Source: a virus
Lineage: Duplodnaviria; Caudoviricetes
DNA: 64,000 nucleotides
Virus record (IMG/VR): IMGVR_UViG_3300021295_000003
Location: 32,001 to 96,000 of that record
Reading direction: 5' to 3' (one strand)
Of the stretch, positions 5,854-54,014 are shown one piece after another (within the stretch, counting starts at the first letter, position 1; each line of letters begins with the position of its first letter). Position numbers and translations under genes: made by a program. A model generated the notes under the pieces. It was not told where the DNA came from and ran no database searches. It saw only the letters and a list, made by a program, of their open reading frames with translations.

Positions 5854-7560
5854 TTACAACCTCTTGATTTTCAAATAATTAAATGTTACAAAACTGGAAA
5901 CGAACTTTTTGTCCACTGCGGAGTTTTGAGCAGGTTCAGCCATCAAGAAAGAAGTTACCCCACTTATATCCCCTGAAAAAGATGTAATTAATACACTATT
6001 ACGATAGATGTAATATGTACCATTCTGATGTCTAAACCTTACCACATCATTCGCTTTTACAGAAAACCCATCTCCCATAAAGATAGAAAGTAAAGCATTC
6101 TGATAAGTAACATTTTCCCAATAATAACCTTGACCCTTTGTTTTTTTCTCATTAAATACAGATTGGGCTTGAACAACACTTAAAGACACTTCAAAATCAA
6201 TACTCAAATCCAAAGCAACACTAATAGAAGACCCATTCGTTAATTTATAACCTGTACTCAAACTCTGCAACGAACCATTAACATTAGTATACTCTTGATT
6301 ATAAGAAACACCACTTGCTCTCCAATACTGCAAAACATCTTCAATAGTCAAACTGCTTGAACTACCTGTAATTGCTGCGGAAACATTCACATCACCTGCC
6401 CCTGATCCGTTATATTGTTTGACTATTAAACCATCTTCACTTGTAGTATATGTTCCACTTATCGCTCCTGTGAAATTCACAGGGATTGGAGTTTCTGCTC
6501 CTTGTACAGTTGCAGTAATAGTTGATTGATAGTTTTGAGAAGTAATCAAAGTATCAGCGGTTAATGAAACAGTAACATCAGGGTATAATACAATAGTAAT
6601 ATAATCTGAATAATAAGTCACATCATCAATAGTTGTAGGTAATCTAAATGTCCATCTCCTTTCAGAAACAACAGATGCAGGTTCGTGAGGGTATGGACGA
6701 GATATATTTACTTCTCCATTGCTATCAGTAGTAACGTCCCATATTGTTTGGTTTGCTATACCTTGTCCAAGATAATTCTCCAATCTTGCACGGATATTCA
6801 CATTTTCAAAATTAACAGAATAAGGAGAATAAGATAATATTTGTATAAGGTATCCTACACTTATATTGAAAGTTAATTCACTTGCTCCGCTGTGTTCGTC
6901 ACCTTCAAAATTAATTCTAATGGTATGACTGCCATCAGTTAATCCATTAACTTCAAGAGTTGTATTCCCTCTATCGGTATTAGCTGGGAGAGTAATATTA
7001 GTTGTACCTTGGCTTACATCATCAATAAACCATTCAACAGATTTAACTTCTGCCTTAACAAAAGATTGTCCACTTACAAATTCAATAGGTAATGAGAAAG
7101 CTGAATTTGGAGTATAATTAACGGTTGAGTCATTATATCTTCTAATAGTGGAAGAATAAGCGTCAGGAGTTGGTTCAGTAATAGTTATAAGTCTTGATTT
7201 ACTTCCAAGACAACGGTCATTGCCTTTAAACCTTGCACGGAGATTATGCTCAACATCATAATTCAAATGAACATTAAACGTAAGTTCAGGGTCTTCTTCG
7301 CTCCAATCAATCATATCTGTTTGTAATCCTCCAACGAAAATAGGTATAGGTTCGTCATTATCGTAAACAATAATGTTACTTGTTCCTTTTTCCCCTACCA
7401 CATCAACGGTGAAAGTTTGAACCCCATACTCAATCCTACTATTAGAAAAAGAAACAGGAGTTAAAGTAATGTCAGTTGATTTCGTATAACCAACATCACC
7501 TAAAACCTCAAAAGCTTCTTTTTTTATTTCATAATCGTAGTAAGTTTTTATTCTTGCCAT
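5854..7560 (-). CDS. Ig-like domain tail / adhesin protein
   Basis: Ig-like motifs LRARFKGNDRCLGS, GSHTIRINFEGDEH, TTDSNGEV. Confidence 0.6.
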   Translation of the reverse strand: MARIKTYYDYEIKKEAFEVLGDVGYTKSTDITLTPVSFSNSRIEYGVQTFTVDVVGEKGTSNIIVYDNDEPIPIFVGGLQTDMIDWSEEDPELTFNVHLNYDVEHNLRARFKGNDRCLGSKSRLITITEPTPDAYSSTIRRYNDSTVNYTPNSAFSLPIEFVSGQSFVKAEVKSVEWFIDDVSQGTTNITLPANTDRGNTTLEVNGLTDGSHTIRINFEGDEHSGASELTFNISVGYLIQILSYSPYSVNFENVNIRARLENYLGQGIANQTIWDVTTDSNGEVNISRPYPHEPASVVSERRWTFRLPTTIDDVTYYSDYITIVLYPDVTVSLTADTLITSQNYQSTITATVQGAETPIPVNFTGAISGTYTTSEDGLIVKQYNGSGAGDVNVSAAITGSSSSLTIEDVLQYWRASGVSYNQEYTNVNGSLQSLSTGYKLTNGSSISVALDLSIDFEVSLSVVQAQSVFNEKKTKGQGYYWENVTYQNALLSIFMGDGFSVKANDVVRFRHQNGTYYIYRNSVLITSFSGDISGVTSFLMAEPAQNSAVDKKFVSSFVTFNYLKIKRL

Positions 7561-7564
7561 ATTA

Positions 7565-10500
7565 TCACTTCTTCGCTACTGTTTCGTGGAAAGTCCAAGT
7601 TTTCTTTTTCAAATTCTTATCTCCGGCATAGGTTACTTTGTATGTCTTATATCCTGCTTTGTTAATCAAGAGATAAGCATTTCCGTTATCATTTGTTGTT
7701 TTTGTGTAACGTTTTCCCCCGTGACTGATAACAACTTTCTTCTTTGCTAATGGATAACCCTGTGGGTCTTGCAATTTAAATTTTGCTTTTGCTCCTTTCT
7801 TTCCTGCTCCGGTGAAAGTCATTTTAGGTGTGCCTTTGGATATAGTTATGTCACGTGACACGGAAGTGAGCATAGGCAAAGTAGGGTCATCGTATTGATG
7901 AAATCTTGCTCTAACGGTATGTTTTCCAACAGTCCAACGTCTAAACTGGTCTAATCGCACCTCATTGTTTAAATTCAAGTCTTTCAAGTAGATTTTACCA
8001 TCTTTATCGGTTGTAGCAGTCCAAACTCCTCCGTGAGGTAAATCTCTTTGAATGAGTTTCCCTTGTACGGGTTGTCCTCCTTTGGTTAATCTCCAACTCC
8101 AATTTGGCATTTCCATATATGTGGATTTTGTTGGGAGATTTAGGATTTCCAATTTATATGCTCCTTGCGGATCAGTAGAAGAGGAATTGTCTTTGTATTG
8201 TTCTGGTATGACGGTTATTTTGTCGGTGTATGCTATTCCTTTGTTTCCGTTTCCTGTGTAGACTGCTCTGACTGTGTGTTCTTTGTTGTCTGGGAATATT
8301 ATTCCGAATTTTGGTGTTGTTACCAAATCCGTCATAATATATTTGCCATTTTCATCTGTTTGAGGTGTATTGTTTAATACAGAAATGACTTCGGATACTT
8401 CTCCATCGATTAGAATGATTACTCCATCGTTTATTATATCATTTGACCCATCAAGTGTCCAAATACTTACTTGGTTATTGTATATTTTAGCACTTGGGGG
8501 AGTCAATGATAATGTCGGGTTGATAGTAACATCAGGATTACCTGTATCATCAATGACAAGACAATTACTATTAATATCTCTACTACCCACACAATCAGGC
8601 AGCATATTTTGATGGTTAAGCAAATCCCAAAAGATTGGAATGTCTTCGGCTTCACCATTCACGCTTTCAGCCCAAATTTGTGTCCATTTAGTATGGAATT
8701 TCAAATCTTCATTTGGGTGTTTGATTAACACGTAAGGGTGTCCTCTATACATTGTATAAACAGTTGTATCTGCTACAATCTCTATTTTATCATCAGAAAA
8801 TGCTCCAATACTGAAATCAGTATGAATACCTTGTAATTCTGCAACATTAATATAACTGTTAGATTGCACATCATATTTAGACAAGTACAATTCACCATTT
8901 AAACGATTAAAACCAAGTCTAACCAATCCATTATCTAAATAGAAAGTAGAATAACTATTATCAAGACTAAATAATGAACTTCCAACTTGATTTTCAATAT
9001 CTACGCCACAGAAATACATATAGAACGGTTCTTGTATATATGTGAAGTTATTACTGCCATCATCTTTGAAATAATAGATAGTTCCTTCATTACATTGACG
9101 TGTAAATAAAACCTTTTTATCAGGAATAGGGAATGATGAGATGTACATTCCTGCATAATCGTTCGCATAATCACTTGTAATCATTGACTCTGCCACTTCA
9201 AAGTTAAAGAAGTGTAAAACGTCAGCAGTATCTCCATCGGTGTTTAAGTTTTGGAATTGTAAGTCATAATAATAGTTTTTAGGAAGTAATTCTGTACTGA
9301 AAGTTATGGATTTACCGTTATAACCCTCATCAGTAACTGTTAAGTTGTTTTTGTTGATATAGAAACGTACTGATGACCCATACACGTAATCGTTGAATGC
9401 GAAGATTTCCCCATCATCAGTATCATCGTCATCATCAACATATAAATCTTCTTCGTCTTCTTGTACAACCTCATATTTACCAGTTTCTTCATTAAAGACT
9501 GTTTTTAACTGTAAACTTTCAACATCAACAGATAATAACAGTTCTTTATCAATAACTTCTTCCCAAGACCCATCTTCCAACAAGCGACTTGCTTTAACCA
9601 TACAAGTGAAATACTCTGTATCAGTATCAAACTCATAATTGTAATATTGATATTTAAATAATGGAGTTCCCTTATCATCGGTGATGTAGATTATTCTTTC
9701 GATATTATTTTCTTTATTTTCTTCAATCTTTGAACTGTTCCAAGTTAAATGAATATCTGCTTGTTCAGGTAAAGTTTCATTAGATTTAATACGGATATGT
9801 TGCTTATTATCCATTGTGATAATTGTACGAAGGTTCTCATCGATTTCTTCCGGTTCTTCGTCCTCTTCAACATCAGCGTATTTGTCATAAATGTAAACTC
9901 CATCGGTATCTACATCAAAATAACCGCTACTGGTGACTGGTTCTCCGTCTTCGTCAAGATAAGTGTATGTGGCAAATTCTTCTCCACTTTCAAGAACGTT
10001 AATAGTCATTTGAGGCATTTCCGCAGGAGTAGAGTCTTTTGATTTCTCAATACTAAATCTTGTATTGATATTATGAGTCAAGTAACTGACCTCTAATTCC
10101 CCATCATAGTATAAAGGATTAGTTTTACTTACTCCTTTAACTCCATAAAGTTCAACCCAACCCCTATGGTTCAATACGTCCCCTTCAAACGCTTTCGGAA
10201 CAAGATTAACAGGCACAGGCTTATCCACTTTGGTTAAACCTTGCAAAGTAGTCCAATCACGTGGAGGCAGTTTGATTTGAAGACTAATGTCCTCATCAAT
10301 TTCACCTTTTTTACCCATATAGGTTTTGTTTTTATAACTTTCACGTAATAAATCGTTACTGTAATCAGATTTAGGTTCATAATGACTTGTATGTACTGGA
10401 ACACACCCAATATAAGCAACTTCGTCCCATTTATGAGCTTTAAGAGTACAATCCCCTTCAATCATCACACTATCATACGGATTAACCGCAATAGGCAAAA

Positions 10501-12016
10501 TATGCCCCAAAGCGTCCACTTCAACCAATACACGATGGTCGAACCAAATAATAGGGTCAATCTGAAAAGCAATCTCGGTATTTTCACTATCCAAAGCAGT
10601 ATAAGGGTCAGTATACCTATGTGTAACACTTCCATCTTGCCTTGTAACAATCAAAGTGTTATCACCATCAATTAAAGGAATAAAACAACCTCTCCATTTG
10701 ATAACTGCATTATCAATATGCTCACCGCCATCATTAATTAAATCAAAAGTAACACTATTATTAGTATAATCCACAATACTAATACCTTCGGCAGCACTTG
10801 AAGGGTCAAGCTCCCAATTAACTAACACATTAGTATTATCAGTTGATAAATCCAAACCATACTGCTCAATAACCGCAGAAGACACTTTTGAGTAATCTAC
10901 ACGGTCTTGACCGTCCACATCAACATAATAAGTAACAGTATTTGCAGAAGTTGAAGTACGTATACTGAAATACCAACAAGACTCCTTATTCGCTTGTATT
11001 GTACCGTGTTGAATAGTAATGTCCTCTGATGGACGAGGGTCAATATAATAAGGATAATCCGCATTACCAAGCTTTGAATGTAACGTTTTCAAACCAAACG
11101 CAGACAAACGCAAACACAAACGATTAGTTGTAGACGCTAAACCTGCACCACTACAAACCCAAGAATACTCACCATTACCAAGATTAGTCATTGGTTTAGT
11201 ATTCGATACCAACGTAGTATCAGGAGGCAAACTAATCTTAACAGTCTGATTACCCCCATTCGCTTTCGTAGTATTCCTTAAAGTAACATCAACACAAACA
11301 GTATCATTAACACTACAAGAATGAGGATTATCCTTACTTGTAGCCCTACCATAAGTTAAAACATAATTAGGAATTTCATAATCAACAATAACATAAGCGT
11401 GTTTCAAATAAACATTCGCAGAGTTATCAGTCATAGAGTCAATGTCTTGAAACTTCAAATCAATACCAAACGCAGGTTTATGTAACTGCCCTGTTGGATA
11501 CGCCATTTTATTCCATTCTTCTCCACTAATGGTATAAGCAATATCCTGATTTGAAGTTGTTAATTTTGTTGATGGATATACACGGTAAGTATTATTATAC
11601 CAACCGGTTTTACCATCTTTGGAATGTTGAGTAACCTTACCTTTACCATTATAAATCATAAAAGAACCGACAGGAGCTTTCACCTTCAATCCTTTCTCAC
11701 AAGACAAACCTACGTAAATTGTAACTTTATTAATATACGCATTTTTGGGAATGTCTTCTGTGCTGATCCGAAAATCTGCTATTGCAATAGTTTGAGGATT
11801 TACCATATAGGAAGTTCCTGCTTTTGCATTTTTAAAAGCCGAAGAGTCGCTTCCTTTTGAGGTGTATTTTATTTTCCGTGTATATTTTCCAGTTGCAACA
11901 GTTTCTGTATTCCCATTTGCGTTTTGGATATTAATCCATTTGTTGTAGGGGGTTGTTACGTTTGGGTTCGGTTGTTCGTTTGTGGTTTTAGAGTATATTT
12001 TTTTAGTTTTAGTCAT
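7565..12016 (-). CDS. Large tail-tip protein with adhesin-like Ig domains
   Basis: 1483 aa, second gene after tape measure; C-terminal LQDPQGYPLAKKKVVI...YTKTTNDNGNA...YKVTYAGDKN resembles methanogen adhesin-like repeats. Confidence 0.65.
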   Translation of the reverse strand: MTKTKKIYSKTTNEQPNPNVTTPYNKWINIQNANGNTETVATGKYTRKIKYTSKGSDSSAFKNAKAGTSYMVNPQTIAIADFRISTEDIPKNAYINKVTIYVGLSCEKGLKVKAPVGSFMIYNGKGKVTQHSKDGKTGWYNNTYRVYPSTKLTTSNQDIAYTISGEEWNKMAYPTGQLHKPAFGIDLKFQDIDSMTDNSANVYLKHAYVIVDYEIPNYVLTYGRATSKDNPHSCSVNDTVCVDVTLRNTTKANGGNQTVKISLPPDTTLVSNTKPMTNLGNGEYSWVCSGAGLASTTNRLCLRLSAFGLKTLHSKLGNADYPYYIDPRPSEDITIQHGTIQANKESCWYFSIRTSTSANTVTYYVDVDGQDRVDYSKVSSAVIEQYGLDLSTDNTNVLVNWELDPSSAAEGISIVDYTNNSVTFDLINDGGEHIDNAVIKWRGCFIPLIDGDNTLIVTRQDGSVTHRYTDPYTALDSENTEIAFQIDPIIWFDHRVLVEVDALGHILPIAVNPYDSVMIEGDCTLKAHKWDEVAYIGCVPVHTSHYEPKSDYSNDLLRESYKNKTYMGKKGEIDEDISLQIKLPPRDWTTLQGLTKVDKPVPVNLVPKAFEGDVLNHRGWVELYGVKGVSKTNPLYYDGELEVSYLTHNINTRFSIEKSKDSTPAEMPQMTINVLESGEEFATYTYLDEDGEPVTSSGYFDVDTDGVYIYDKYADVEEDEEPEEIDENLRTIITMDNKQHIRIKSNETLPEQADIHLTWNSSKIEENKENNIERIIYITDDKGTPLFKYQYYNYEFDTDTEYFTCMVKASRLLEDGSWEEVIDKELLLSVDVESLQLKTVFNEETGKYEVVQEDEEDLYVDDDDDTDDGEIFAFNDYVYGSSVRFYINKNNLTVTDEGYNGKSITFSTELLPKNYYYDLQFQNLNTDGDTADVLHFFNFEVAESMITSDYANDYAGMYISSFPIPDKKVLFTRQCNEGTIYYFKDDGSNNFTYIQEPFYMYFCGVDIENQVGSSLFSLDNSYSTFYLDNGLVRLGFNRLNGELYLSKYDVQSNSYINVAELQGIHTDFSIGAFSDDKIEIVADTTVYTMYRGHPYVLIKHPNEDLKFHTKWTQIWAESVNGEAEDIPIFWDLLNHQNMLPDCVGSRDINSNCLVIDDTGNPDVTINPTLSLTPPSAKIYNNQVSIWTLDGSNDIINDGVIILIDGEVSEVISVLNNTPQTDENGKYIMTDLVTTPKFGIIFPDNKEHTVRAVYTGNGNKGIAYTDKITVIPEQYKDNSSSTDPQGAYKLEILNLPTKSTYMEMPNWSWRLTKGGQPVQGKLIQRDLPHGGVWTATTDKDGKIYLKDLNLNNEVRLDQFRRWTVGKHTVRARFHQYDDPTLPMLTSVSRDITISKGTPKMTFTGAGKKGAKAKFKLQDPQGYPLAKKKVVISHGGKRYTKTTNDNGNAYLLINKAGYKTYKVTYAGDKNLKKKTWTFHETVAKK

Positions 12017-12551: not shown

Positions 12552-15500
12552 TTAATTACCAGTAGCTGGATTAATACCCAAAATATCAAGAATTTGTTTT
12601 CCACTTCTTTCGTCAATCCTTTTATTATTCACTTCAACATCGTTTCCGTGAACATTAATTTCAATATTAGTATTGTAAGTATCTCCACCGTTTGTAGGTA
12701 CATCGCCTTTTGTTGCGTATCTACGAGGCATACTACCTGCGTTATAACCTTTAACAGCACTACTTGTGAAACTACCTCTGTTCTGTATAGCAGTAGGGTC
12801 AATAATACCAAGACCCGGAATATTAGCCCATACGTGACCTATACCGTTCCAAGTACCGTGTCCACGTGAACCTTCAAATCCAAATGCTCTTGCAATTGCA
12901 AGGACAATATTAGTACCGTCCCAACAATTAAATGCTCCCGCTCTCAAAGCAGCAACAGGGTCATCACCGAAATTACTATCAAAGTATTTATCATAATCAG
13001 TAGCACGAATAACATCGAAAATATACTGTTTCGCAACATCAGCTCTACCTTTAACAGGGAAATTACTATTTTCAAACTTACCTACATTTAGGAAATCGTC
13101 AAGGTGATATGCTCCGAAATGAGTATTCCAACCTTTAAACTTCTTACTAATCTTATTAGTCCAGTTAAAGTTCCAACCACCTGCATAGCAAGGTTTACCT
13201 GTTTCCATCATACATTTTAAGTATTCTAACATACTATTATCAGAAGGTTGTCCGCTACTACGTCTTCCTTTGAAGAGTGATTGACTTCTACTGATTGTAC
13301 CTCCTGCGTAATGCCCATTCGCACGTCCACCTGTAAACCTGCGTCTAATAGACCCAGTATGCCCTCCTTGACTACCAATCAACTGGTCTGGGTGTTTAAT
13401 CTTATTCCAAAACTCTCCAAGATTAGATTTCAATTTATTAATCTTCTGACCTGTTTGAGTCTTGATATGGTCGGCACTTGCAATTAATGCGTCTTGCATT
13501 CCTCTCCAAGATGTTTTAATGTTTCCAATATTACCAATTGTGGCTGCTTTCATATTTGACAAGCTTGAACGTGTTTTCGCTACAATGTTGGTGAAACTTG
13601 ATTGTATACCTGTCTTCATAGCATTAAAGTTTGTAACAACTTGTGATTTCATACCAGTTACAGTAGGTAGAATAGTAGAAATTGACTGTTTGAATTGGTC
13701 GAGGTTAGGAAGTTGAATATTGCCTAAACCAAATGTAGGGTTGAAGTTAGTAGTTAATGATTGAGCTAACTGTGAAGCCATTTGAGGTAAGTTCAAACCC
13801 CCTGTGTTAGTCAAAGCTTGACCGATGTAACCCATCTCATCAGATACCGCCCTTGCCATTTTACCTGGACTGTGCTGATCCAATCCATTGTTATCTTTGA
13901 AACCATTAGACAAGGAAGTACCCAAAGCAGCCCCTCTGTCATAGAAATCTTGTTTACGCTCATCAAGATATTGTAAAGCATATCCTACTTCGGTTTCAAC
14001 GGTGCTTTTGATTTTAGCATTGTCCTTAAAACCATTGGATAATTTTTCTCCGAGTCCTTTTCCTTTACTACTCATTGTGTCAGATAACCCTGTAAGAGCA
14101 GAAGAAACGTCGCTATTTAAGGAGGTTAATCCTTCTTTGACTCCACTTACGATAGCAGTACCCATATTCTTTGCAGTTGCCTTAACAGTAGGGATTGCTC
14201 CTGTCAGGGTAGTTTTGGTATTATTGATTTGGGTTTGCAATGCAGACACAACATTACTTGCATTAGTCACTCCACTTGTATCCCCACTTCCAGTAGCAGT
14301 TAAACCATTAATTTTAGTATTGAAGTTCATTATGTCTTTAACAGACATATATAACTCATCTAATCCGCTTTTAAGACCACTTGCTTGTGGGTTTCCATCT
14401 CCAATTAAGTAACCAACTGCTGCTCCAAGAATACCCCCACTTGCCATATTTCCTTGCCAAGAAGCGTCCACAGCACTTCCCATAGCATTTTTAACAGCGT
14501 CAATAGCGGTTTGAATAGCACTAATACCATTAGCACTATTTTGAAGGGCAGCGACTTTATCAGGATTAATCGGTTCAACAGTAATGTTTTCATTGAAGTT
14601 TTTAACAAACTCGTTTAACTGGTCTATTGGTTGTTTTAATTGTTCAAAGTAGTTAGTTACACCATTAGTGTCTGCTGTGGCTGCTCCACTTACTGCGTCT
14701 TGGTATTTTTCGTTTGGTGAACGAGTATCTGTTTCAAAGTTTGGTAAATCTTTTAAGGCTTCTTTTACAGTTACTAATGCAGTTTTAACACTATCTATAC
14801 CAGTAGCAGACTCTGACAAAGTAGTAACTTTCGCAGAGTCAATTTGGGTAATTTCTAATTTATTAAAATCAGTTATGAAAGTTTCTAATTGAGAGAAGAA
14901 ACCTCCTTCACCAGTTAATTGAGTTAAATCCGCACCAATCTTAACTCCAATTAAATTAGCAACAGCAGTAGCAAGACTATCCCAAGCAATCAAAGCAAAA
15001 GCACTCATAGCTTGTTCAACATAACCTAACGCTTCGGCAGTTAATTTAATAGCCTCTGCACCTTGTTGAACATTACTTAAATCAGTAAACTTATCCCCCA
15101 ATGCTCCTATTTGTTGCAATGGATATTCAAGACTCCAAATAGTTTCGGCAACCCATAACATACCGATAGGAATGCCTAATGTAATTGCAGTTCCCATAAT
15201 CGCTCCAAGAATTGGATTAGCAAATGCAATCGCAACAGTAGCAATCGCCAAAGCCAAAGCAGGGATAAATGGTGCAAGATACATTAAAGAGTCAGACACA
15301 ATCTTCATAGCTTGTGTTCCTTTTTGCACTTGTGCTTGAATACCACTATACTGGTCGCCTAATGCTCCAATCGCCCAAATACTTGGAATAATCATTACAA
15401 TAGTTTCTGCTACAAGCAACATACCTGCTACAATACCAATCGCTGCTTTAAGAGTTCCTGTAACAATTTGAGTATAAGATGGAGCATATTTATCCATAAT

Positions 15501-37416: not shown

Positions 37417-37420
37417 AATA

Positions 37421-44454: not shown

Positions 44455-44477
44455 TTATAATATTCATATTATTATTT

Positions 44478-44615
44478 ATGTCAGAACAAAAGACATTACA
44501 AATACGAAAGAATACTTATGAGCGATTACAGCTACATAAGAACAAATTCGATACGTATAACATAGTGCTTACCCGTTTATTAGATAAATGGGAGGCGTTC
44601 TACAATGTCTTCTAA
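44478..44615 (+). CDS. Small ribbon-helix-helix-like regulator
   Basis: MSEQKTLQIRKNTYERL...DTYNIVLTRLLD pattern; too short for the ORF track. Confidence 0.6.
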   Translation: MSEQKTLQIRKNTYERLQLHKNKFDTYNIVLTRLLDKWEAFYNVF

Positions 44616-45012
44616 TCCTTATATGGGAGTTCCGATTTCAGAGGAAACTCATCAACGTTTAACCAAATTAAAAGGTGAAAATGACACTTTTGATGATGTT
44701 GTGAATAAACTCCTGGAATTGGAAGAAACATATAATATGCCGGAGGAAACAATGGAATACGAGTATATCTTGCCGAATGGTAAGACAAAAGTGTTCCGTG
44801 TGGTCTTTGGTGATAAAACCAAGATTGAGTATTACAATCGGAGGAAATATGACTTTGAAAAGGATATTCGTGCTTGGTTTACTGGGGAGAGGATTTCTGA
44901 CTCTGAAATAAACTCTTTCATTAGGTTTATTGTTAAGGACAGTAATTTGATGTTGTTATATGATATGGACGAAGAACTGGTCTTGAATGATATTCATATT
45001 AGAAGGGTTTAG
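44605..45012 (+). CDS. RHH-like DNA-binding protein with extra C-terminal domain
   Basis: VPISEETHQRLTKLKGENDTFDDVVNKLLE. Confidence 0.65.
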   Translation: MSSNPYMGVPISEETHQRLTKLKGENDTFDDVVNKLLELEETYNMPEETMEYEYILPNGKTKVFRVVFGDKTKIEYYNRRKYDFEKDIRAWFTGERISDSEINSFIRFIVKDSNLMLLYDMDEELVLNDIHIRRV

Positions 45013-45252
45013 GTAACTATTATATAGATAGTGGTTACATATGATTATACTGTGAGATTAACAGAATAGTTTTGGAAAAGGTTTGATTTTTACTCTTTTT
45101 TCAAGGTAGTAAAATGTTCTTAAAAAAACTACCTTTATAAATATGAAAGAGTAGATTTCTACTAATTTTTCAAGATTATTACTGCCCAAATGCTCTCTTG
45201 GAAATAATCAAACAATACTCAAAAAGGATATAATTAAATTGGAGGTAAAAAA

Positions 45253-46446: not shown

Positions 46447-46835
46447 ATTGTGGGGTTGTGAGTTAATCACCACAAAAACTCACCAAACCCTGCAATTAGT
46501 TTTTTTTCTTCCGAGAAGTTGAAAAAAATAACAATTCTTGTAAAAATAGTTAATTCTAATTGCATTTTCTATTTTTATTCATTGTTGTATTTAAGTGTAA
46601 AGTATTGATTTTTAGTAATTTTTCGTAGGTGCAAGGTAAAAAAAATCACCACATAAAATTTTACCTGTAACCTATTCTTCCGAGAAAAGAACTAACAGAG
46701 GTAAAAAAAAATGAAGAAAATAACATATCAAGGCGAAGACGGAGTCTTCTATTCACAAGAAGAGTTCCAGTCTTTACAATCAAAGATTTTGGAACAAAAT
46801 CAGCTCATTCAAGACCTCCTGAAAAAGGTGGTAGA

Positions 46836-47090
46836 ATGAACGAATTTAAGCAGCAGATAGTGAATGTTCAAGCTTCAACCGTATTGGTTAAATCAAGCAA
46901 AGGCACTATTTATCCTGTTGTGGTATCTGACAGAGTCAGATTAAGTGGTAAAACTATTAACAAGGGAGATACTGGTGTTATTCATCGTACTAATGGTAGG
47001 TATTACTTATATGATGTAATACCTAAACAAGATGAAACCGACAGTTATCTATCCGATGTACCGTTAGGAGATTTGGGCTATGACTACTAA
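46836..47090 (+). CDS. Hypothetical protein
   Basis: ATGA-coupled to a small ORF at 46711-46839. Confidence 0.55.
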   Translation: MNEFKQQIVNVQASTVLVKSSKGTIYPVVVSDRVRLSGKTINKGDTGVIHRTNGRYYLYDVIPKQDETDSYLSDVPLGDLGYDY

Positions 47091-47240
47091 AAAACCGAAA
47101 TCTTTGTATCCAGCAACCGAAACAGAGCAGATTAATGTAAACTTTGCGTTAATTGTTTTAATGAGCGTTTTATTTGGATTTGTATTAGCATTAATTGGGT
47201 TTGCAACTATGCACTACCCATCTATTCAGGGGGTGATTTA

Positions 47241-47999
47241 ATGAATTTAGTATACAGGAGAATAACCGAAGAAGTCTACGAAGACGAGAACCTTGTGGAA
47301 ATTAAATCTAACGATGACGAAATTAAAACTCTTCATCGTAGGATTGATTTATTACAAGCGGAAATTAATGAAATGAAATCTTTGTTAGTACAACCTGCAA
47401 AGACAACCGTTTCCACCGTTTCCACAACCCCAGTTAAAACAAGAACTGTTGCTGCTTGTAATCAGAAACCGTTTAAAAGGTTTGTTTACTCTAATTATGA
47501 GTTCCAATCAACCGCTCGATATTCAGGGAAAGTCTTATTTGATATTTCTGATGTTGTGAGATTATCTAAACTTATTGATAATGTAGAGAAGTTTCCGACA
47601 ATGAAATTGTTAAAGGAGAATGTTGCTCCATTTATGGGTAATAATACTTTTACTAAACTTGTTTATAATTATCAGGAAGGATTTTTCAAGGATTATCTTT
47701 CAGAATATTATAAGAATGTTAAATTCACTATCTGCAATAATCACATTTGTATTGATGGAATGGATACCAAATTGCGTCCTGATGAGGTTTGGTACATTGT
47801 TAATTTAGTGATTAATTCCAATAATCATTATGAATGTGTTGATAATCTTGTTAAACAGTATTCAAAGACTAAACCTTTGTTTATCAAGATTATAACTGAT
47901 TTTGCAAGTGATGGGAGATTGAGCAGACTGCTCCACCCTCCACTAAAACAGGTTAAAATTGAGAATAATCCTGAAAAAAGGAGAGAAATGGGCTTATGA
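47241..47999 (+). CDS. Hypothetical protein
   Basis: GGGGTGA RBS, 252 aa. Confidence 0.65.
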   Translation: MNLVYRRITEEVYEDENLVEIKSNDDEIKTLHRRIDLLQAEINEMKSLLVQPAKTTVSTVSTTPVKTRTVAACNQKPFKRFVYSNYEFQSTARYSGKVLFDISDVVRLSKLIDNVEKFPTMKLLKENVAPFMGNNTFTKLVYNYQEGFFKDYLSEYYKNVKFTICNNHICIDGMDTKLRPDEVWYIVNLVINSNNHYECVDNLVKQYSKTKPLFIKIITDFASDGRLSRLLHPPLKQVKIENNPEKRREMGL

Positions 48000-48123
48000 A
48001 TGATTTAGAAGCAAGAAAATTGGGTGCAATCTTGGAGGAGATTGCAACTCAATTAAAAATACAAAATGAGTTGTTAAGACAGATGAATGATAATTTAATT
48101 GATATTAAAGGAGGTATGCCTTA

Positions 48124-48387
48124 ATGGGTATAGAAGAAGCGTTATTAAACGAAATGAGAGCAGAAGCGAATAAAGTAATGATTGAACGTATCAAAGATGG
48201 TAGAATTACACTTGACAATGATGTTATTCCCCCGTTCCTATCAGCAAACTTGGTATCAAATCCTCAAATGATTGATATACTTGAAGCAATGGCTGATTTG
48301 ATTATGGAGGAAACAATGGAAAAAGAATACGTTGTCTTTTTCTTAAACAAAGTCAGAGAACTTGCAAACAAAGAAAGGAGTTTCTAA
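48124..48387 (+). CDS. Hypothetical protein
   Basis: GGAGGT RBS. Confidence 0.55.
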   Translation: MGIEEALLNEMRAEANKVMIERIKDGRITLDNDVIPPFLSANLVSNPQMIDILEAMADLIMEETMEKEYVVFFLNKVRELANKERSF

Positions 48388-48389
48388 AT

Positions 48390-49091
48390 ATGGCAAGAAG
48401 ACCTAAAAAAGAAGAAACTGCACCGATTGTCATTCACGATGAACAAGGGGGTATAATGGCTGAATATCCATCTGATTTGGTGGATACAATCAAAGCGACC
48501 GTAGCAAAAGGAGCTACCGATGAGGAACTTTATATGTTCCTCTCTATCGCTAATCAGTACGATTTAAACCCATTTATGAAGGAGATATGGTTCACAAAAA
48601 TGCAAGGAGAAGTCGCTATAATGACTTCCCGTGACGGTTATAAGAAATTAGCCGAAAAAGAACCGAATTTCCGTAAATGTCAATCAATGGCAGTTTATGA
48701 GAACGATGAGTTTGAAATGGAGTTAGTAATGGGTGAAGTGATGAATATTACTCACAAATTCAAGCAGAACGATAGAGGAAATATTATCGGTGCATATGCA
48801 GTCTTAAAGACCACAGACCACGATAATTATGTGTCCTACGTTGATTTCAAAGAATATGACAAAAGAAATAACATTTGGAAACGTTATCCGTCCGCAATGA
48901 TACGTAAAGTTGCAGAGAATGATGTTTACAAACGCTTTGCGAAAGTTAATGGGGTTTCAGATTTCGAGTCTATGCCTAACGGGTTCAGAAATGAACTTGC
49001 AGAGGAAGAGATGGATTTTAGTGAAGAATTTGAACCGATAGACATTCAACAAGTAATAGATGATACAATCGAAGAAAGTAAGGAGGAATAA
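48390..49091 (+). CDS. bet: Single-strand annealing recombinase (Bet/RecT family)
   Basis: ATDEELYMFL...YDLNPFMKEIWF...SRDGYKKLA...W...PSAMIRKVAE. Confidence 0.9.
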   Translation: MARRPKKEETAPIVIHDEQGGIMAEYPSDLVDTIKATVAKGATDEELYMFLSIANQYDLNPFMKEIWFTKMQGEVAIMTSRDGYKKLAEKEPNFRKCQSMAVYENDEFEMELVMGEVMNITHKFKQNDRGNIIGAYAVLKTTDHDNYVSYVDFKEYDKRNNIWKRYPSAMIRKVAENDVYKRFAKVNGVSDFESMPNGFRNELAEEEMDFSEEFEPIDIQQVIDDTIEESKEE

Positions 49092-49093
49092 TT

Positions 49094-49681
49094 ATGGCAG
49101 TAGACCCAAAATATGTAGAAGAAGTTAAAAACGAAGAAGAAAAAACCGATTTCACTTCCACTTTGGAAATGTTTGGAATTGAAGCGTCCAACGAGTCCGT
49201 CGGCAACGGAATAGACATTACTGGTTATATGGAAACCAAACTCCGTGATATGTATGATGGTGACGAATGTACTGGAAAACCCGTCTTATCTGACATTTAT
49301 ACTGTTGAGTTTAAGGACAAAAATACTGGGGAAACCATTGTAAACAATAAATTAGATTTATTACTCTTTGATGACAGTTATGAGGACGAAAAAGAAGTTT
49401 ACACTTTCCCAATCAACTTAAACAGCGACAACATTGACTTTGAAAAACACATTGTCAAAAATGTAAACTCTGCAAGTGGATTGTATGCTCTCGCAATGGG
49501 ATTTATGGACTTGGAAACTCCGGGTATCAGTAAAGCGTTCAATAAACTTGATGTTGTACCATATGTACAGTTAAAAAAGATTATTGAAAGTTATAAAACC
49601 GTGATGGTACAAGTTGTTGAAAAACAATTCAACAATAATTATTACAATAGTTTTAGAGTTGTAGAAGGTAAAAAAGAGTAG
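49094..49681 (+). CDS. Acidic protein between Bet and helicase (possible SSB)
   Basis: GGAGG RBS; function inferred from position only. Confidence 0.45.
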   Translation: MAVDPKYVEEVKNEEEKTDFTSTLEMFGIEASNESVGNGIDITGYMETKLRDMYDGDECTGKPVLSDIYTVEFKDKNTGETIVNNKLDLLLFDDSYEDEKEVYTFPINLNSDNIDFEKHIVKNVNSASGLYALAMGFMDLETPGISKAFNKLDVVPYVQLKKIIESYKTVMVQVVEKQFNNNYYNSFRVVEGKKE

Positions 49682-49690
49682 GAATGAGAA

Positions 49691-51694
49691 ATGAACTGGG
49701 AAGAGCAAGGTAAAAAACTGGTGGACGTTTTAACACCGGTTTATAAACCGCAGAGCGAAAGAAAACTCTTTAAAAGTATCATAAGTGCTTTATATCATAA
49801 TACTTTTGAGATTGATGACGCTGAAAAGATGATAATGAGCATTTATGATAATCTTCCCGACCATCGATTTGAACGTTCTGAAATCTTCAAACTATTAGAT
49901 GATGTATTTATGGGAGAAGAAACTTCAAATGGAGGAATATCCTCCCTTGAAGACATCTTAACCATTGACTATGGTAATAAATCTGCACGTAAAGCTGTAA
50001 AAAAAATCAAAAAAATCATAAGTCCTGCCGAGTCTATGGGAAACTTTGAAATCACCGATAATTCTTGGATCAGGATTGATTTTGTTAATAATGAAGTGGA
50101 TTATGAGTCTGTGTCTTTGGTTAAGAATGAGCGTGTTGTTTCTTCTTCAAAGATTTTGTTATGTAGACCGTATAAGGTTGTAGTTCACGAAGACCCTTTG
50201 TATGATGGGCAACGTGAGTTTACGATTACTTGGGTTACTACAAACAATACATATTTCACTACACGTAAAACTACTATCTCTGCGATGGAGTCCCAGTTAT
50301 ATGATAGTGGATATGTAGTTAATCAGAAACATTTGAAGACTGCTATGGCAAGTGTTATTCAATTGTTTGTAGCGAATGGTGTAGCAGAAATCCAAAATGA
50401 AATACAAGCAAAAGGTTTCTATGTGAGTAAATCTAATCAGTTGGTTATGGTTGATTATGAGTTGAAACCAGTTGTTAAATCAGAAGTTGAGTCTGCTTTG
50501 GATTTGATTGAGGATTTGAGGCATTTTTTTATAGGTCACGAACCGAAACTTGCTACTACATTGAAGCACGGAATGATAGCTCCATTTGGTTTCGCAAAGA
50601 AACAGTTAGGTTTGCCATTGGAGTTGTTAATTCCTTATTTGTATCATTATGGGAAAGCAGGGTCAGGTAAGACTACTATTGCCCGTATTGGTTTATGGTT
50701 TTACGATAAACCTCAAATGGACTTTAATGACATTGGAGGAACTGAATTTGATACCGTTCCAAGAATTGGAGAACAGTTGCGTAAATCAACATTTGGTTTG
50801 TTGGTAAATGAACCTGAAACAAGTTTGTCAAAGAAATCCTGTGCAGCAACATTAAAAACATCAGTTGAAAGGACAAACGCAAGACAGCGTATAAGTGGAA
50901 ATCGTATGGAGCATATCCTTGCTTTATCTACTGTTAGTTTCGCTTCAAATATTCCTTTACCAAATATTGAGGGTTTACCACGTCGGTTTGTTCAAATATT
51001 GTATAGTTACAATGAGAAGAAATCCGATGAGGAAAAGGAAGCGTTTATGAAACATTTTAAATTAAACTCTCCTGACGAATGTGAGTTCAACAAACTTCAA
51101 TTCTTGGCGAATTTTGTTGTCAAACAGATAGATAATGAGATTGATTTGTTAAAACTTTCTTGGAAAGAGTTAGGAAATGAATTAATCAATCGAGCATATG
51201 ACTATGTTGGGCGTGAAGTACCTATTTGGTTGCTCCAATATGTTGAGTCCGTGACAGAGGAAGACCTTGATGATGAGGAAATTGAGGACATCAGAATATT
51301 TTTCTTAAATGAAATCAATAAACAATCTTCTCAAATCAAATTATACTCATCAGAGGACGGACGTAGTTTAAATCAAGATGTATTTTATACAGAAGAGGTT
51401 AAAACAAGTGAGGACTTTGAAGAGAGAGTTTGGAACGTTTTAAATGAGGGATTAATCCCATTTATGGTTACTCACGAAAATCGTGAGGGAATACGTGAAG
51501 TCTGTTTCCTAAATGGTTTGAAAAAAGCATTGAACGAAGCGAATATTGCGTGTTACTCTATCCCTTCTACTGCGGAACTGCTTGGTTGGGATACAGGATA
51601 TACTAAAATCAATGGGAAGTCCAGTCGATGTATGAAAATTAATTTCAGACGATTTGTAAGGTTCTTGTATCCTTCTTTGGAGGGTCTTGAATGA
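49691..51694 (+). CDS. P-loop NTPase, putative replicative helicase
   Basis: Walker A YGKAGSGKTT, LLVNEP Walker B-like, SFASN, RRF; helical N-terminus reminiscent of primase C-terminal domains. Confidence 0.75.
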   Translation: MNWEEQGKKLVDVLTPVYKPQSERKLFKSIISALYHNTFEIDDAEKMIMSIYDNLPDHRFERSEIFKLLDDVFMGEETSNGGISSLEDILTIDYGNKSARKAVKKIKKIISPAESMGNFEITDNSWIRIDFVNNEVDYESVSLVKNERVVSSSKILLCRPYKVVVHEDPLYDGQREFTITWVTTNNTYFTTRKTTISAMESQLYDSGYVVNQKHLKTAMASVIQLFVANGVAEIQNEIQAKGFYVSKSNQLVMVDYELKPVVKSEVESALDLIEDLRHFFIGHEPKLATTLKHGMIAPFGFAKKQLGLPLELLIPYLYHYGKAGSGKTTIARIGLWFYDKPQMDFNDIGGTEFDTVPRIGEQLRKSTFGLLVNEPETSLSKKSCAATLKTSVERTNARQRISGNRMEHILALSTVSFASNIPLPNIEGLPRRFVQILYSYNEKKSDEEKEAFMKHFKLNSPDECEFNKLQFLANFVVKQIDNEIDLLKLSWKELGNELINRAYDYVGREVPIWLLQYVESVTEEDLDDEEIEDIRIFFLNEINKQSSQIKLYSSEDGRSLNQDVFYTEEVKTSEDFEERVWNVLNEGLIPFMVTHENREGIREVCFLNGLKKALNEANIACYSIPSTAELLGWDTGYTKINGKSSRCMKINFRRFVRFLYPSLEGLE

Positions 51695-52035
51695 TTAATT
51701 GTGATTTTGAGCGATGTACTGACAAGTGTACTTATTATGAGTCTTGTATACTACATCACCCATCACATTTTAATCAACTTCAAGTCGAAGAGGAATTAAA
51801 ATGGAATGTCAATCGATTAAATGAATTGACAAGAGGGATTAATCAATATAAACAATCGCTCTATGAATATGATAGGTTGCCTGATGAGGTGCAGAAATAC
51901 TTGTCACGTGAAAAACTACAAGACCTGATCCGTAAGAGTGAGCTTGAAAAACAGGAAGTTCAATCAACAATCAGGGAATTGCAAATTAAAGAGTTAAACA
52001 TTAGAAAAATTTTACAGAGAAGAAAGGGGAATTAG
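51691..52035 (+). CDS. Cys-rich N-terminus plus coiled coil
   Basis: ATGA-coupled. Confidence 0.55.
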   Translation: MINCDFERCTDKCTYYESCILHHPSHFNQLQVEEELKWNVNRLNELTRGINQYKQSLYEYDRLPDEVQKYLSREKLQDLIRKSELEKQEVQSTIRELQIKELNIRKILQRRKGN

Positions 52036-52037
52036 TT

Positions 52038-52421
52038 ATGAATTTTGTTGTAATAGAGAATAAGGAGTCTAATGTGGATATGGGGTCTTTTGAGGACGAG
52101 TATTTACATTCTACTATTATGAATGAGGAATTAAGGGTTAAGTATGGTTTATCTAAATTAGAGTTTCGTAATTTGACTCAAAAGATTAAAGAGCGTCTTG
52201 GTGTGAGTCGCAGACCGAATGTGGCTGCCAAGTATTATTATGTGCATTGTAATGCGTGGGTTATTCATAGGAAAATTAATGGGGAATTAGTTTACTATGG
52301 GCGTATTCCGTTTAGTATGGGGGAGGAAACTTTAAATCAGGCATTACAGATTTGTGAAGCGAATAACTGGGAATGTGAAAAATGTAAGAAATTGATTAGG
52401 GAGTTGAAACAATGCAATTAG
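52038..52421 (+). CDS. AP2-like DNA-binding domain protein
   Basis: WVIHRKINGELVYYG...NNW. Confidence 0.55.
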   Translation: MNFVVIENKESNVDMGSFEDEYLHSTIMNEELRVKYGLSKLEFRNLTQKIKERLGVSRRPNVAAKYYYVHCNAWVIHRKINGELVYYGRIPFSMGEETLNQALQICEANNWECEKCKKLIRELKQCN

Positions 52422-52521
52422 AACCTACTCTTGAAAAAGGTTACATTATTGATTGTGATTATTTGATACGTGTGAGGGATTATCATCGTTTAACTCCGTT
52501 GATTATTGTTGAGGTGGATTT

Positions 52522-52902
52522 GTGGGACGAGTTATAGATGTTGAAGAGTTTCGTAAGGATTTAAGGACTATGTCGCTTGAAGATACTCTTATCAAGCATA
52601 ATGTGTCTTTGGAGGAAGCAATGGACTGTATGCCGAAGACGTATACAAAACCTAAACCTAAAAAGAAACGTTTAAAGAATGTGGATAGGTATATTCAAGA
52701 GCGTGATGGTCGCTTTTATCTTCGGAAATGGATTAATGGTAAAACATTAATGTTCGGGACTTATAATAGTCTGAATGACGCTAAAAAAGTCAGGGAACAT
52801 TGTGAAAAACACGGGTGGAAACAAAATTGTATTAAACAGTATTGTGAAGAGCTTGGGATTGAACTGATTTCAGTTCATAAAACAAAGGAGAGATACGAAT
52901 GA
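52522..52902 (+). CDS. AP2-like DNA-binding domain protein
   Basis: FYLRKWINGKTLMFGTYNSLNDAKKVR...HGW. Confidence 0.6.
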   Translation: MGRVIDVEEFRKDLRTMSLEDTLIKHNVSLEEAMDCMPKTYTKPKPKKKRLKNVDRYIQERDGRFYLRKWINGKTLMFGTYNSLNDAKKVREHCEKHGWKQNCIKQYCEELGIELISVHKTKERYE

Positions 52903-53234
52903 ACATTGTAGTTAATGGAGATGTGGTTATTTATGAAAACACTTCTTCTAAAAAGTCTGTTAAGGATATACGTGTTTCTTCTCAATTAAGTAAAGTTAAG
53001 CAGAAAGTAAAAAGCAGAGATGGTCTTTGTCAATGTTGCGGAGAGGACGCTAATGGGCATTTAGAAGTCCATCATATCCTCCCCGTTGCAAAATACAAAG
53101 ATTTGGCTTGTGATATGAATAATATGATTAGTTTGTGTCAGAAATGCCACGCAAAGTATCACGATTTGTATCCGCAGGTGAATGCTGTTACTTTTAGCGA
53201 TTATATGAAAAGATATGCGAATAGGAGGGGTTAA
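52899..53234 (+). CDS. HNH endonuclease
   Basis: RDGLCQCCG...LEVHHILP...NMISLCQKCH. Confidence 0.9.
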   Translation: MNIVVNGDVVIYENTSSKKSVKDIRVSSQLSKVKQKVKSRDGLCQCCGEDANGHLEVHHILPVAKYKDLACDMNNMISLCQKCHAKYHDLYPQVNAVTFSDYMKRYANRRG

Positions 53235-53407
53235 ATTATGCCAAATAGTGCAGAAATGGAATTAAGAGCATTACATAACACAATAGCTGAAATTAAAAGA
53301 CAAATGCAAGACTGTGTGAATGTAAAACACTATGAAGAGTTACAAAAACAATTAAACGAATTTGAACAGATGAGAATTGACTTATTAAAAAAAATGGAAG
53401 TGGAATT

Positions 53408-53866
53408 ATGAGTTTTATTATTGATAAAATTGATTTAGATAATAGATTAGTTGTTAGGGAGAAATCTACTGGTTGGTTTTTCCCTGTTGAGTCTAAAATC
53501 CAAGCAGAAGTCTTATGTGATAAATTTAACGAAATTGAAAACAAACCATTGGATTTACATAAAAATTTTGAGGAATGGGACAAATACATTGACAATGTTA
53601 TTATCGGTGAAAAAAACTTAATCAATCTCAAACAAGAATTTGAAGAACAATCACAAGAAATAATCGCAAATACTGACTTCAAAGAACTTTACGGAGCAAA
53701 CAATCAGAAAGTAAGAGATAATCATATTAAAAAAGAATTATCCGAACTTACTGAAACAATCAATGATACCAAACTCAAAGTAGAGTATGCAAAAATGAGA
53801 ATAAGTTTCCTGAAACGCTTAATCGATATGAAAACAGAACTCATCAAATACGGAGAAGACAAATGA
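53408..53866 (+). CDS. Coiled-coil hypothetical protein
   Basis: TDFKELYGANNQKVRD, 152 aa. Confidence 0.65.
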   Translation: MSFIIDKIDLDNRLVVREKSTGWFFPVESKIQAEVLCDKFNEIENKPLDLHKNFEEWDKYIDNVIIGEKNLINLKQEFEEQSQEIIANTDFKELYGANNQKVRDNHIKKELSELTETINDTKLKVEYAKMRISFLKRLIDMKTELIKYGEDK

Positions 53867-54014
53867 GTAGATACAATGTTAAAAAAATCTTGAAAAAAAT
53901 CCGCTATGGGGTCGGTGATTTCAAATATCAAATTGTCACTTCGGATCAGGTTGTCTGTGATGACATCAGCAATGAGGAGTTGGCAATTGAATTATGTAGG
54001 GAGATGAACCGTGT

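Follow-up and report, generated by a model that had tools for sequence, protein, structure and literature searches.

The question raised by this 64,000-nucleotide stretch of viral DNA (the window; positions 32,001 to 96,000 of the IMG/VR record IMGVR_UViG_3300021295_000003) is why GATC, which is nearly eliminated from most of it, survives almost exclusively within one asymmetric 7-mer, CTGATCC (GGATCAG on the opposite strand). The initial annotation, made by eye, had listed 22 GATC sites in the first 56.4 kb, and exact counting returned the same set: 18 CTGATCC/GGATCAG, three CTGATCT and one GGATCC. All 18 positions of the 7-mer were exactly as first listed, and 10 of these copies extend to CTGATCCG. 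In the whole 104.7-kb record, two more copies are found directly left of the window, giving 20 in total.

The avoidance rule ends at about 56.4 kb of the window (22 of its 28 GATC sites lie before this point) because a second, different virus is joined there. The restriction-avoidance signature changes at a 739-bp repeat, and two distinct large terminase genes are present (Table 1). The 104.7-kb record behaves as two joined viruses and is best treated so, that is, as arc A (virus A) and arc B (virus B). Arc A (~61 kb) holds all 20 copies of CTGATCC and 24 GATC sites, while arc B has 30 GATC sites in mixed contexts; CATG occurs once in arc A and 169 times in arc B, and CTAG 0 and 61 times, respectively. 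Thus, the varied GATC contexts noted earlier beyond 56.4 kb do exist, but they reflect a junction with a second virus rather than a gradient within one genome, and the signal described as genome-wide is confined to arc A of a composite record. This two-virus composition of the 104.7-kb "genome" matters to users of the record.

The purge of GATC with one exempt 7-mer proved to be real, and the selective retention of GATC in CTGATCC within arc A is beyond doubt. The 24 GATC sites compare with ~172 expected in arc A, with 159–184 expected from Markov models of its 58.4-kb core, and with 117 under a codon-shuffle null. Twenty of the 24 are GGATCAG and three are AGATCAG (RGATCAG, 23 of 24), so that 20 fall in a single flank context out of ~128. 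When grouped by both neighbours, the sites comprise 20 GGATCA, three AGATCA and one GGATCC, all ten other classes being empty, and the base following GGATCA is G in every one of the 20 cases. Outside RGATCAG, one GATC was found against ~172 expected, a purge as complete as those of CTAG (0 observed, 146 expected), CATG (1 and 195) and GGCC (2 and 58); GCGC is likewise depleted (2 and 32). The "forbidden" sites that remain in arc A are concentrated in an AT-rich island, which harbors 11 of the 15 (one GGCC, two GCGC, five CGCG and three non-canonical GATC).

Table 1. Features of the window and copies of CTGATCC (window coordinates unless a prefix is given).
Feature	Coordinates	Strand	Remarks
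Virus A large terminase (TerL)	30724–32043	-	phrog_2, E 5e-42
Virus B large terminase	60843–62210	+	Second and distinct; phrog_979, E 1e-38
Arc A/arc B junction repeat, 739 bp	54900–55638	+	99.3% identity to genome 25665–26403
AT-rich 1.9-kb island	34463–36334	.	Residual "forbidden" sites
C5 cytosine methyltransferase, catalytic half	42040–42564	+	Motifs I–VIII, stop at end; PF00145, E 4e-72; phrog_116, E 2.5e-75
First target-recognition-like module	42625–42726	+	Ends in G10 tract, 42715–42724
C5 methyltransferase, second half	42744–43499	+	More target-recognition-like modules, motifs IX–X
58-aa ORF	43496–43672	+	One additional target-recognition-like module
Non-canonical GATC, GGATCC	36257–36262	.	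GATC at 36258; AT-rich non-coding stretch
Non-canonical GATC, two AGATCAG	36294–36300, 36333–36339		GATC at 36295 and 36334; in repeated TTTTAAAAGATCAG, AT-rich non-coding stretch
Non-canonical GATC, fourth of arc A, CTGATCT (= AGATCAG)	40230–40236	+	GATC at 40232
CTGATCC	L213:3350–3356		Left of window
CTGATCC	L213:4271–4277		Left of window
CTGATCC	6402–6408	+	568-aa gene; Gly-Ser-Gly on coding strand
CTGATCC	8169–8175	-	GGATCAG on + strand; 1483-aa gene
CTGATCC	11763–11769	+	1483-aa gene
CTGATCC	13875–13881	+	2911-aa gene
CTGATCC	16703–16709	+	2911-aa gene
CTGATCC	18674–18680	+	2911-aa gene
CTGATCC	21325–21331	+	Non-coding; start of 2911-aa gene 38 nt downstream
CTGATCC	24884–24890	-	148-aa gene; Leu-Ile-Pro, Leu-Met-Pro in relative L084
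CTGATCC	29549–29555	+	431-aa gene adjoining TerL
CTGATCC	31956–31962	+	TerL Walker A codons GGA TCA GGT
CTGATCC	38221–38227	+	245-aa gene
CTGATCC	39418–39424	+	311-aa Peptidase_M78/ImmA-like gene
CTGATCC, first of inverted pair	43885–43891	+	50-aa ORF directly downstream of methyltransferase genes
CTGATCC, second of inverted pair	43930–43936	-	50-aa ORF; 45 bp from first
CTGATCC	45989–45995	+	Integrase gene
CTGATCC	50067–50073	-	667-aa gene
CTGATCC	51925–51931	+	114-aa gene
CTGATCC, last of arc A	53943–53949	-

Avoidance of short palindromes that serve as restriction sites is known in phage and archaeal virus genomes, e.g., the loss of GATC in T7-like coliphages. Virus A resembles these cases in that several 4-bp palindromes are purged from 7-fold to completely, in that the signature differs between viruses, as expected if it tracks host restriction enzymes, and in that cognate nuclease families are found in the host genus. 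It departs from the usual pattern in that GATC keeps 23 copies in one asymmetric 7-bp context, above the neutral frequency. Virus A is a tailed, temperate virus infecting Methanobrevibacter (gut methanogens), the host link coming from sequence relationships: its closest terminase relatives were found in Methanobrevibacter MAGs, and Methanobacteriales is the label on the nearest GenBank record. A strain with ~94% identity occurs in the sheep-gut run X13. Among 103 Methanobrevibacter genomes, full-length Sau3AI-family nuclease genes scoring over the curated cut-off are present in 12 and DpnII-family genes in 10; about one fifth of the species carry families of GATC-cutting enzymes. In all four loci inspected, the Sau3AI gene adjoins a C5 methyltransferase gene, and a GATC m5C methyltransferase is predicted by REBASE for Methanobrevibacter sp. 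YE315, according to a review (PMC11033074).

Our preferred explanation, to which we assign a probability of roughly 0.45, is that CTGATCC bears a protective modification specific to these 7 bp, the probable writer being a viral C5 methyltransferase. Virus A would evade host restriction by losing the target words CTAG, CATG, GGCC, GCGC and GATC. GATC is purged as fully as the rest, with only GGATCAG/CTGATCC and, rarely, AGATCAG spared; there, a modification recognising 7 bp would render the embedded GATC uncuttable. Recognition and modification of 7 bp would best explain the pattern because the exemption is one asymmetric 7-bp context. We infer that CTGATCC is methylated, that the candidate writer is the virus's own split C5 cytosine methyltransferase with its several target-recognition-like modules, and that this methylation spares the sites; methylation of the C in GATC would block Sau3AI-type enzymes.

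The methyltransferase gene is interrupted twice: a frameshift lies near 42545, and a G10 tract sets the first target-recognition-like module out of frame with the remainder; the same tract is G9 in run X5. The FxGxG, PCQ, ENV, QRRER, RE..QGFP and GNAV motifs are all present, and the translation contains about 4–5 tandem modules resembling Q..[IV]Y...G[IL][SA]P[ST]L, with boundaries drawn by eye. The homopolymer tracts suggest phase variation, and part of the split enzyme may be off in this record. No close relatives of the modules were found in IMG/VR or in the 103 Methanobrevibacter genomes, the searches turned up neither a second carrier of these modules nor a characterised relative, and they are unlike the recognition region of the host Sau3AI-linked C5 methyltransferases. 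Multispecific C5 methyltransferases are known from Bacillus phages (M.SPRI, M.Phi3TI and M.Rho11sI), and a split enzyme is represented by M.AquI. Like the former, the enzyme of virus A is virus-borne and solitary, and several target-recognition-like modules stand in tandem between its motifs VIII and IX; like M.AquI, it divides catalysis and recognition between separate polypeptides. Unlike the Bacillus phage enzymes, which protect short palindromes such as GGCC, it occurs in a virus that purges GGCC, and it contains the homopolymer tracts that point to phase variation. Targets that are asymmetric and 7 bp long are unusual among C5 enzymes, and to our knowledge have no precedent in the multispecific phage family.

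The tie between the 7-mer and the viral methyltransferase, raised as a possibility by the initial annotation, seems to be the best available lead. Four near-complete relatives in this virus group (G001, G002, G003 and G109) yielded no homologue of the enzyme, and none of them has an excess of CTGATCC; the association stands at one virus with both features against four with neither. A search of 67 proteins of arc A returned neither a restriction-type nuclease nor a MutH/Sau3AI domain or a Dam methylase. In the four relatives, GATC is at 0.20–0.24 of expectation (a 4–5-fold purge) and its contexts are mixed.

These relatives bear on another explanation, in which nothing is modified: the host nuclease or nucleases met by the virus would not cut GATC in GGATCAG, through flank-dependent cleavage or combined narrower specificities, and the word would be selectively neutral. 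A graded context bias is indeed seen in the relatives, in which no C5 methyltransferase homologue was found: G109 spares GGATCR (26 of 37 GATC sites) at an approximately neutral rate, and, when the relatives are pooled, GATC survives most often as GGATCA (65 of 161 sites; 112 of 494 in one sampled host genome). Nevertheless, a single asymmetric cutting rule acting on both strands could not, by our reasoning, yield an asymmetric 7-bp exemption, plain GATC cutters of the Sau3AI and DpnII families exist in the genus, and neutrality predicts 4–8 copies rather than 20. Exemption without modification is considered improbable.

The same numbers also constrain the preferred shielding explanation, since a pure shield likewise predicts the neutral frequency, and the exempt sites of arc A are not at that frequency. 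In the 58.4-kb core, 3.6–4.0 copies of CTGATCC are expected from Markov models of orders 0–2 and 0.54 from order 3; a codon-shuffle null, which keeps the amino acids and the codon use of each gene, expects 7.9 (a figure that counts four copies outside the ORF set, which shuffling leaves in place), and scaling by the fraction that this context makes up of GATC sites in the host gives ~8. The observed 20 thus lie above the codon-aware expectation, as had been anticipated (z = 6.9; rank 6 of 2872 7-mers), and 16 of 78 synonymous opportunities to write the word are used against 3.7 expected, across five frame/strand settings. The excess is real but moderate (2.5–5-fold), and it is unaccounted for by shielding alone. 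Positive selection, which had been read directly from the enrichment, is a weaker conclusion than was assumed: the excess exists, but five unrelated 7-mers are equally or more extreme under the same codon-shuffle null, which is therefore heavy-tailed.

One way to account for the excess is that CTGATCC serves the virus as a cis-acting site under positive selection. A viral protein would bind, nick or mark it, for replication, recombination, packaging or self-recognition, and the candidates are the HNH nuclease, the products of the ERCC4/RecT recombination genes and the methyltransferase (as writer); the embedded GATC would be tolerated or protected because the virus needs the sites. Besides the count and the use of synonymous opportunities, this explanation is consistent with the TerL Walker A motif, where the Gly-Ser pair is the same in seven relatives, which have no GATC there because glycine is encoded by GGT or GGG, virus A alone having GGA-TCA-G. 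The copies are also spaced slightly more evenly than random (CV 0.65 against 0.93; P = 0.03), and the motif extends weakly into its flanks, position +1 being G in 11 of the 20 copies and position -1 being C or G in 15. At 330 per Mb, the copies are 4–8 times as dense as in any one of the 103 genomes of the host genus. On the other hand, the null is heavy-tailed, no reader protein was identified, the four relatives have no excess of the motif, and one stretch of 9.1 kb has no copy. The orientation of the copies in the virus (12 sense, 4 antisense) matches codon expectation (2.3 and 1.4), so that there is no polarity. A cis-acting site is regarded as rather doubtful.

A Chi- or HIP1-like element, as had also been proposed, or a KOPS-like one, finds no support as a host signal in the 103 Methanobrevibacter genomes searched. 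CTGATCC resembles these oligomers in being a 7–8-mer that recurs about every 3 kb and, like HIP1, has GATC at its core; unlike them, it is non-palindromic and lacks strand polarity, and none of the 103 genomes of the host genus has it in excess. Its density there is 40–80 per Mb, which is about the compositional expectation, and forward and reverse copies are balanced in these genomes as well as in the checked region of one host genome. We know of no reader of the RecBCD/AddAB type in methanogens.

The excess might instead be a by-product of codon-pair habits peculiar to the lineage (e.g., GGA-TCA-G) or of the historical conversion of an earlier pool of ~20 spared GGATCA sites. Similar z-scores are reached by further 7-mers specific to arc A, among them AGCGTCC and CAGAGTC, which have no defined core, and the GGATCA total of 20 equals the compositional expectation (~19) and the count in G109 (19). 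This leaves the G after all 20 GGATCA unexplained, however, and it can be reasoned that conversion of the +2 base is usually non-synonymous, while a synonymous change of GGA to GGN easily destroys GATC; we consider a by-product improbable. Shielding and selection could also be combined, although we hold this to be improbable too: CTGATCC would be a selected epigenetic "self" tag, with the multi-module, phase-variable methyltransferase writing m5C at ~20 evenly spread sites and a viral function such as packaging or replication reading it to distinguish virus A from viruses resident alongside it, such as virus B, and GATC-containing sites would therefore be maintained in an otherwise GATC-scrubbed genome. 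If the excess reflects a signal that is read, virus A would offer a rare example of a restriction-type word deliberately kept by a virus.

If the shielding explanation is true, sequence alone would predict what an uncharacterised methyltransferase of an archaeal virus recognises and what biological effect it has; its specificity would be unusually long and asymmetric, and CTGATCC would give a defined substrate on which multi-module, phase-variable C5 enzymes could be tested. Viruses of methanogens are almost uncultured, and such sequence-based predictions are therefore one of the few routes to their arms race with the host.

An exact search of the window revealed 28 GATC sites, 22 of them before 56.4 kb, and 18 of these 22 lie in the 7-mer CTGATCC/GGATCAG, with ten of the 18 extending to CTGATCCG. 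The positions at which the initial annotation had placed these 18 copies were all matched exactly. The window also contains three copies of CTGATCT, the reverse complement of AGATCAG (GATC at 36295, 36334 and 40232), and a single GGATCC (GATC at 36258). The window is positions 32001–96000 of a 104,717-bp record, which as a whole has 54 GATC and 20 copies of the motif, the two extra ones being located just left of the window. Within the 58.4-kb core, 24 GATC were observed versus 159–184 expected, and the 7-mer was found 20 times versus 3.6–4.0 expected under Markov models of orders 0–2, or 0.54 under an order-3 model, which has the GATC depletion built in. The claim that GATC is purged except in one 7-mer is therefore upheld.

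Self-comparison of the record revealed a 151-bp overlap of its ends, which indicates a circular assembly, and a direct repeat that splits the circle into arc A (26404–86899 of the record, 60.5 kb) and arc B (42.6 kb). The motif is confined to arc A, where it makes up 20 of the 24 GATC; the 30 GATC of arc B have mixed contexts, and none of them is a motif copy. The arcs also differ in their restriction-avoidance signatures. Observed versus expected counts in arcs A and B, respectively, are 0/146 and 61/100 for CTAG, 1/195 and 169/223 for CATG, 2/58 and 1/36 for GGCC, 2/32 and 2/14 for GCGC, and 27/53 and 1/20 for CCGG. The signature changes abruptly: ahead of the first repeat copy, CATG is found up to a distance of 67 bp, and beyond the second copy it reappears after 560 bp. 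Other findings also point to two viruses. Each arc has a separate large terminase gene; relatives of the arc A terminase that are rated complete and have terminal repeats measure 57.8 and 63.7 kb. In a sheep-gut run of 2024, two contigs (43.6 and 18.6 kb) of a strain about 94% identical jointly cover arc A and stop at the repeat. Arc A and a single copy of the repeat, about 61 kb in total, are here called virus A. The record is probably either a chimeric assembly formed via the shared repeat or a recent cointegrate, and in both cases the histories of the two arcs have long been separate. The counts behind the initial statement that GATC contexts vary after 56.4 kb hold, but the boundary is the junction with a different virus. 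Matches of 28–40 bp to the repeat (90–97% identity) are found in several Methanobrevibacter genomes and could be CRISPR spacers.

Positions of features in the record (window coordinates unless the genome is named)
Feature	Position	Description
Direct repeat, 739 bp	genome 25665–26403 and 86900–87638 (window 54900–55638)	copies 99.3% identical
tRNA-Trp (CCA) gene	22971–23043	within the structural-gene block of virus A
AT-rich island, 1.9 kb	34463–36334	GC about 0.25
Conserved stretches, 37–60 bp	40727–40767 and 44420–44480	77–94% identity in many Methanobrevibacter genomes
Integrase gene	45253–46446	
Upstream 251-aa gene	41288–42043	overlaps the start of the methyltransferase gene
Split C5 methyltransferase genes	42040–43672 (+)	
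Methyltransferase catalytic half, motifs I–VIII		ends at a stop codon
Usual post-motif-VIII segment		reading frame different from that of the catalytic half
First recognition-like module	ends in G10 tract, 42715–42724	out of frame with the downstream part
251-aa methyltransferase product		more recognition-like modules and motifs IX–X
58-aa ORF		one additional recognition-like module

Virus A has genes for terminase, capsid and tail-tube proteins, integrase, RecT, ERCC4-type and HNH nucleases, and a C5 methyltransferase. The closest relatives of its terminase are encoded on Methanobrevibacter MAG contigs (84% and 71% identity), the second within a 121-kb host contig, and the nearest GenBank record bears the host label Methanobacteriales. 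Near-identical virus A DNA is contained in many ruminant and faecal metagenomes; a search of 103 Methanobrevibacter genomes with 20 kb of arc A (window 36001–56000) found no close provirus. The two conserved stretches near the integrase gene, where no tRNA was called, are candidate attachment-site cores. The AT-rich island harbors 11 of the 15 residual "forbidden" sites of arc A (one GGCC, two GCGC, five CGCG and three non-canonical GATC) and includes TTTTAAAAGATCAG twice; it represents either a recent acquisition or cis-elements that resist change.

Sorted by their NGATCN class, the 24 GATC of arc A comprise 20 GGATCA, three AGATCA and one GGATCC, with the seven remaining classes empty, and the base following GGATCA is G at all 20 sites. 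GGATCAG accounts for 4.7% of GATC sites in one sampled host genome. According to our own calculation, the binomial probability of 20 out of 24 sites sharing one context is about 1e-20, about 128 possible contexts being allowed for. GATC outside RGATCAG is present once in arc A versus about 172 expected, a purge as complete as that of CTAG or CATG.

The codon shuffle of arc A gave an expectation of 7.9 copies, including four that lie outside the ORF set and hence stay fixed in the shuffle, versus 20 observed (z = 6.9). Synonymous codons would permit the motif at 78 places, and it is used at 16 of them versus 3.7 expected, in five frame/strand settings. The enrichment noted initially thus exceeds the codon-shuffle expectation, but it is not unique, as CTGATCC ranks 6th of 2872 7-mers, and the other top words, likewise specific to arc A, include AGCGTCC, CAGAGTC and CTTCGGC. 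Since these unrelated 7-mers rank equally high, the 2.5–5-fold excess is suggestive and alone is no proof of positive selection. AGCGTCC, CAGAGTC and GAAGCG-type words were rejected as further motifs, their contexts being diffuse and reflecting more GCG-containing (CpG) words in arc A. That the excess is merely a by-product of codon habits or of history is the least probable of the readings considered here.

The motif copies are spaced more evenly on the circle than under random placement (CV 0.65 vs 0.93 ± 0.18, P = 0.03), and their flanks are weakly informative, with G at +1 in 11 and C or G at −1 in 15 of the 20 copies. Together with the excess, the mildly regular spacing and the weak extended consensus allow for a selected motif that is read as a signal, though we regard this as unlikely. 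Among the coding copies, GGATCAG is sense in 12 and antisense in four, in agreement with the 2.3 to 1.4 expected on a codon basis, so the motif shows no polarity in the virus. The inverted pair at 43885 and 43930 (45 bp apart) is not significant, about 0.3 such close pairs being expected by chance. A resemblance of TGATCC to the complement of the 16S rRNA 3' end was rejected, as the first base of the motif does not fit and 15 of the 20 copies are sense-oriented.

In all 103 Methanobrevibacter species genomes, CTGATCC is found at about 40–80 per Mb with balanced strands, and none of them is an outlier for its enrichment or avoidance; in virus A it reaches 330 per Mb. This neutral density and strand balance remove KOPS- and uptake-sequence-like readings, as well as the Chi/HIP1-like element proposed at the outset. 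An apparent all-forward run of the motif in one Methanobrevibacter genome merely reflected the order of listing, as both orientations are interleaved. In 400 kb sampled from one host, GATC occurs in ordinary contexts at 0.40 of the number expected from composition.

Full-length Sau3AI-family genes were identified in 12 and DpnII-family genes in 10 of the 103 genomes; GATC restriction is therefore patchy in Methanobrevibacter, which fits a partial purge in most of these viruses and a complete one in virus A. In all four Sau3AI loci inspected, a C5 methyltransferase gene adjoins the nuclease gene, in agreement with the GATC m5C enzyme predicted by REBASE in Methanobrevibacter sp. YE315 (PMC11033074). 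Host cleavage that itself depends on the bases flanking GATC would be another explanation of the pattern, though quite an improbable one.

All of the viruses related via the terminase or a 2911-aa protein are depleted in GATC 3–6-fold, and among them the exclusive motif context is limited to virus A and L001, a 4.1-kb fragment 99% identical to it, in which both GATC are motif copies and both are kept. The context is absent from the next-closest relatives (terminase at most 92% identical in amino acids, DNA about 75%). A terminase scan of metagenomes and genomes found nothing above that identity, and IMG/VR searches for close relatives with the 2911-aa, 667-aa and 1483-aa proteins gave at most 47% identity or no match. 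Two RecT cluster members (P0122 and P0124) stand for strains 90–99% identical. The strain of about 62 kb in sheep-gut run X13 (about 94% identical) has 1146 differences; none of the 40 listed falls at a motif, which is uninformative on motif conservation. In four near-complete relatives, GATC is present at 0.20–0.24 of expectation in mixed contexts; one of them, G109, is intermediate, with GGATCR at 26 of 37 GATC, roughly as many as neutrality predicts for this class. The Walker A codons of the terminase are GGA-TCA-GGT in virus A; seven relatives have this Gly-Ser as well but use GGT or GGG for it, which leaves them without a GATC there. No C5 methyltransferase homologue was detectable in the four near-complete relatives, and the context rule is absent in all distant methyltransferase relatives (L227–L275). 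A distinct set of 4-mers is fully purged in every one of the related methanogen viruses, for example ACGT, CCGG and CTAG in G002 and G003, CGCG, GCGC and GGCC in G001, and CCGG in arc B. Unlike these words, GATC stands at 0.20–0.26 across the four relatives and arc B.

The layout of the virus A methyltransferase was read from the translation of its locus. The G10 tract is G9 in metagenome run X5, so its length varies in nature, which would fit one recognition module being phase-variable. X5 also lacks one G of the G3 run (43882–43884) that immediately precedes the motif copy at 43885. None of the 67 arc A proteins was found to have a restriction-type nuclease domain. The upstream 251-aa gene has no match in Pfam, PHROG, NCBIfam or PDB; an Atlas search places it with thioester-domain/SpaA-like surface proteins, which are unexpected next to a DNA methylase, and it was thus rejected as a nuclease partner. 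The methyltransferase is therefore solitary, like anti-restriction methyltransferases.

Sau3AI-type cleavage is blocked by a methylated C in GATC. The most economical mechanism is a protective modification specific to this context, with the C5 methyltransferase of the virus itself as its most likely source (probability about 0.45): if this C were methylated on both strands of GGATCAG/CTGATCC, an enzyme of the Sau3AI type could not cut there. Against it, no characterised relatives of the recognition modules were found, the modules differ from the recognition region of the host Sau3AI-linked methyltransferases, and a 7-bp asymmetric target would, to our knowledge, be unprecedented for the C5 class; nor does shielding predict the excess, the spacing regularity or the extended consensus. 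Flank-dependent cleavage and a by-product are less likely than either shielding or a selected signal. The exemption in virus A is that of one asymmetric, over-represented 7-mer, for one word only (GATC), in a virus of an archaeon.
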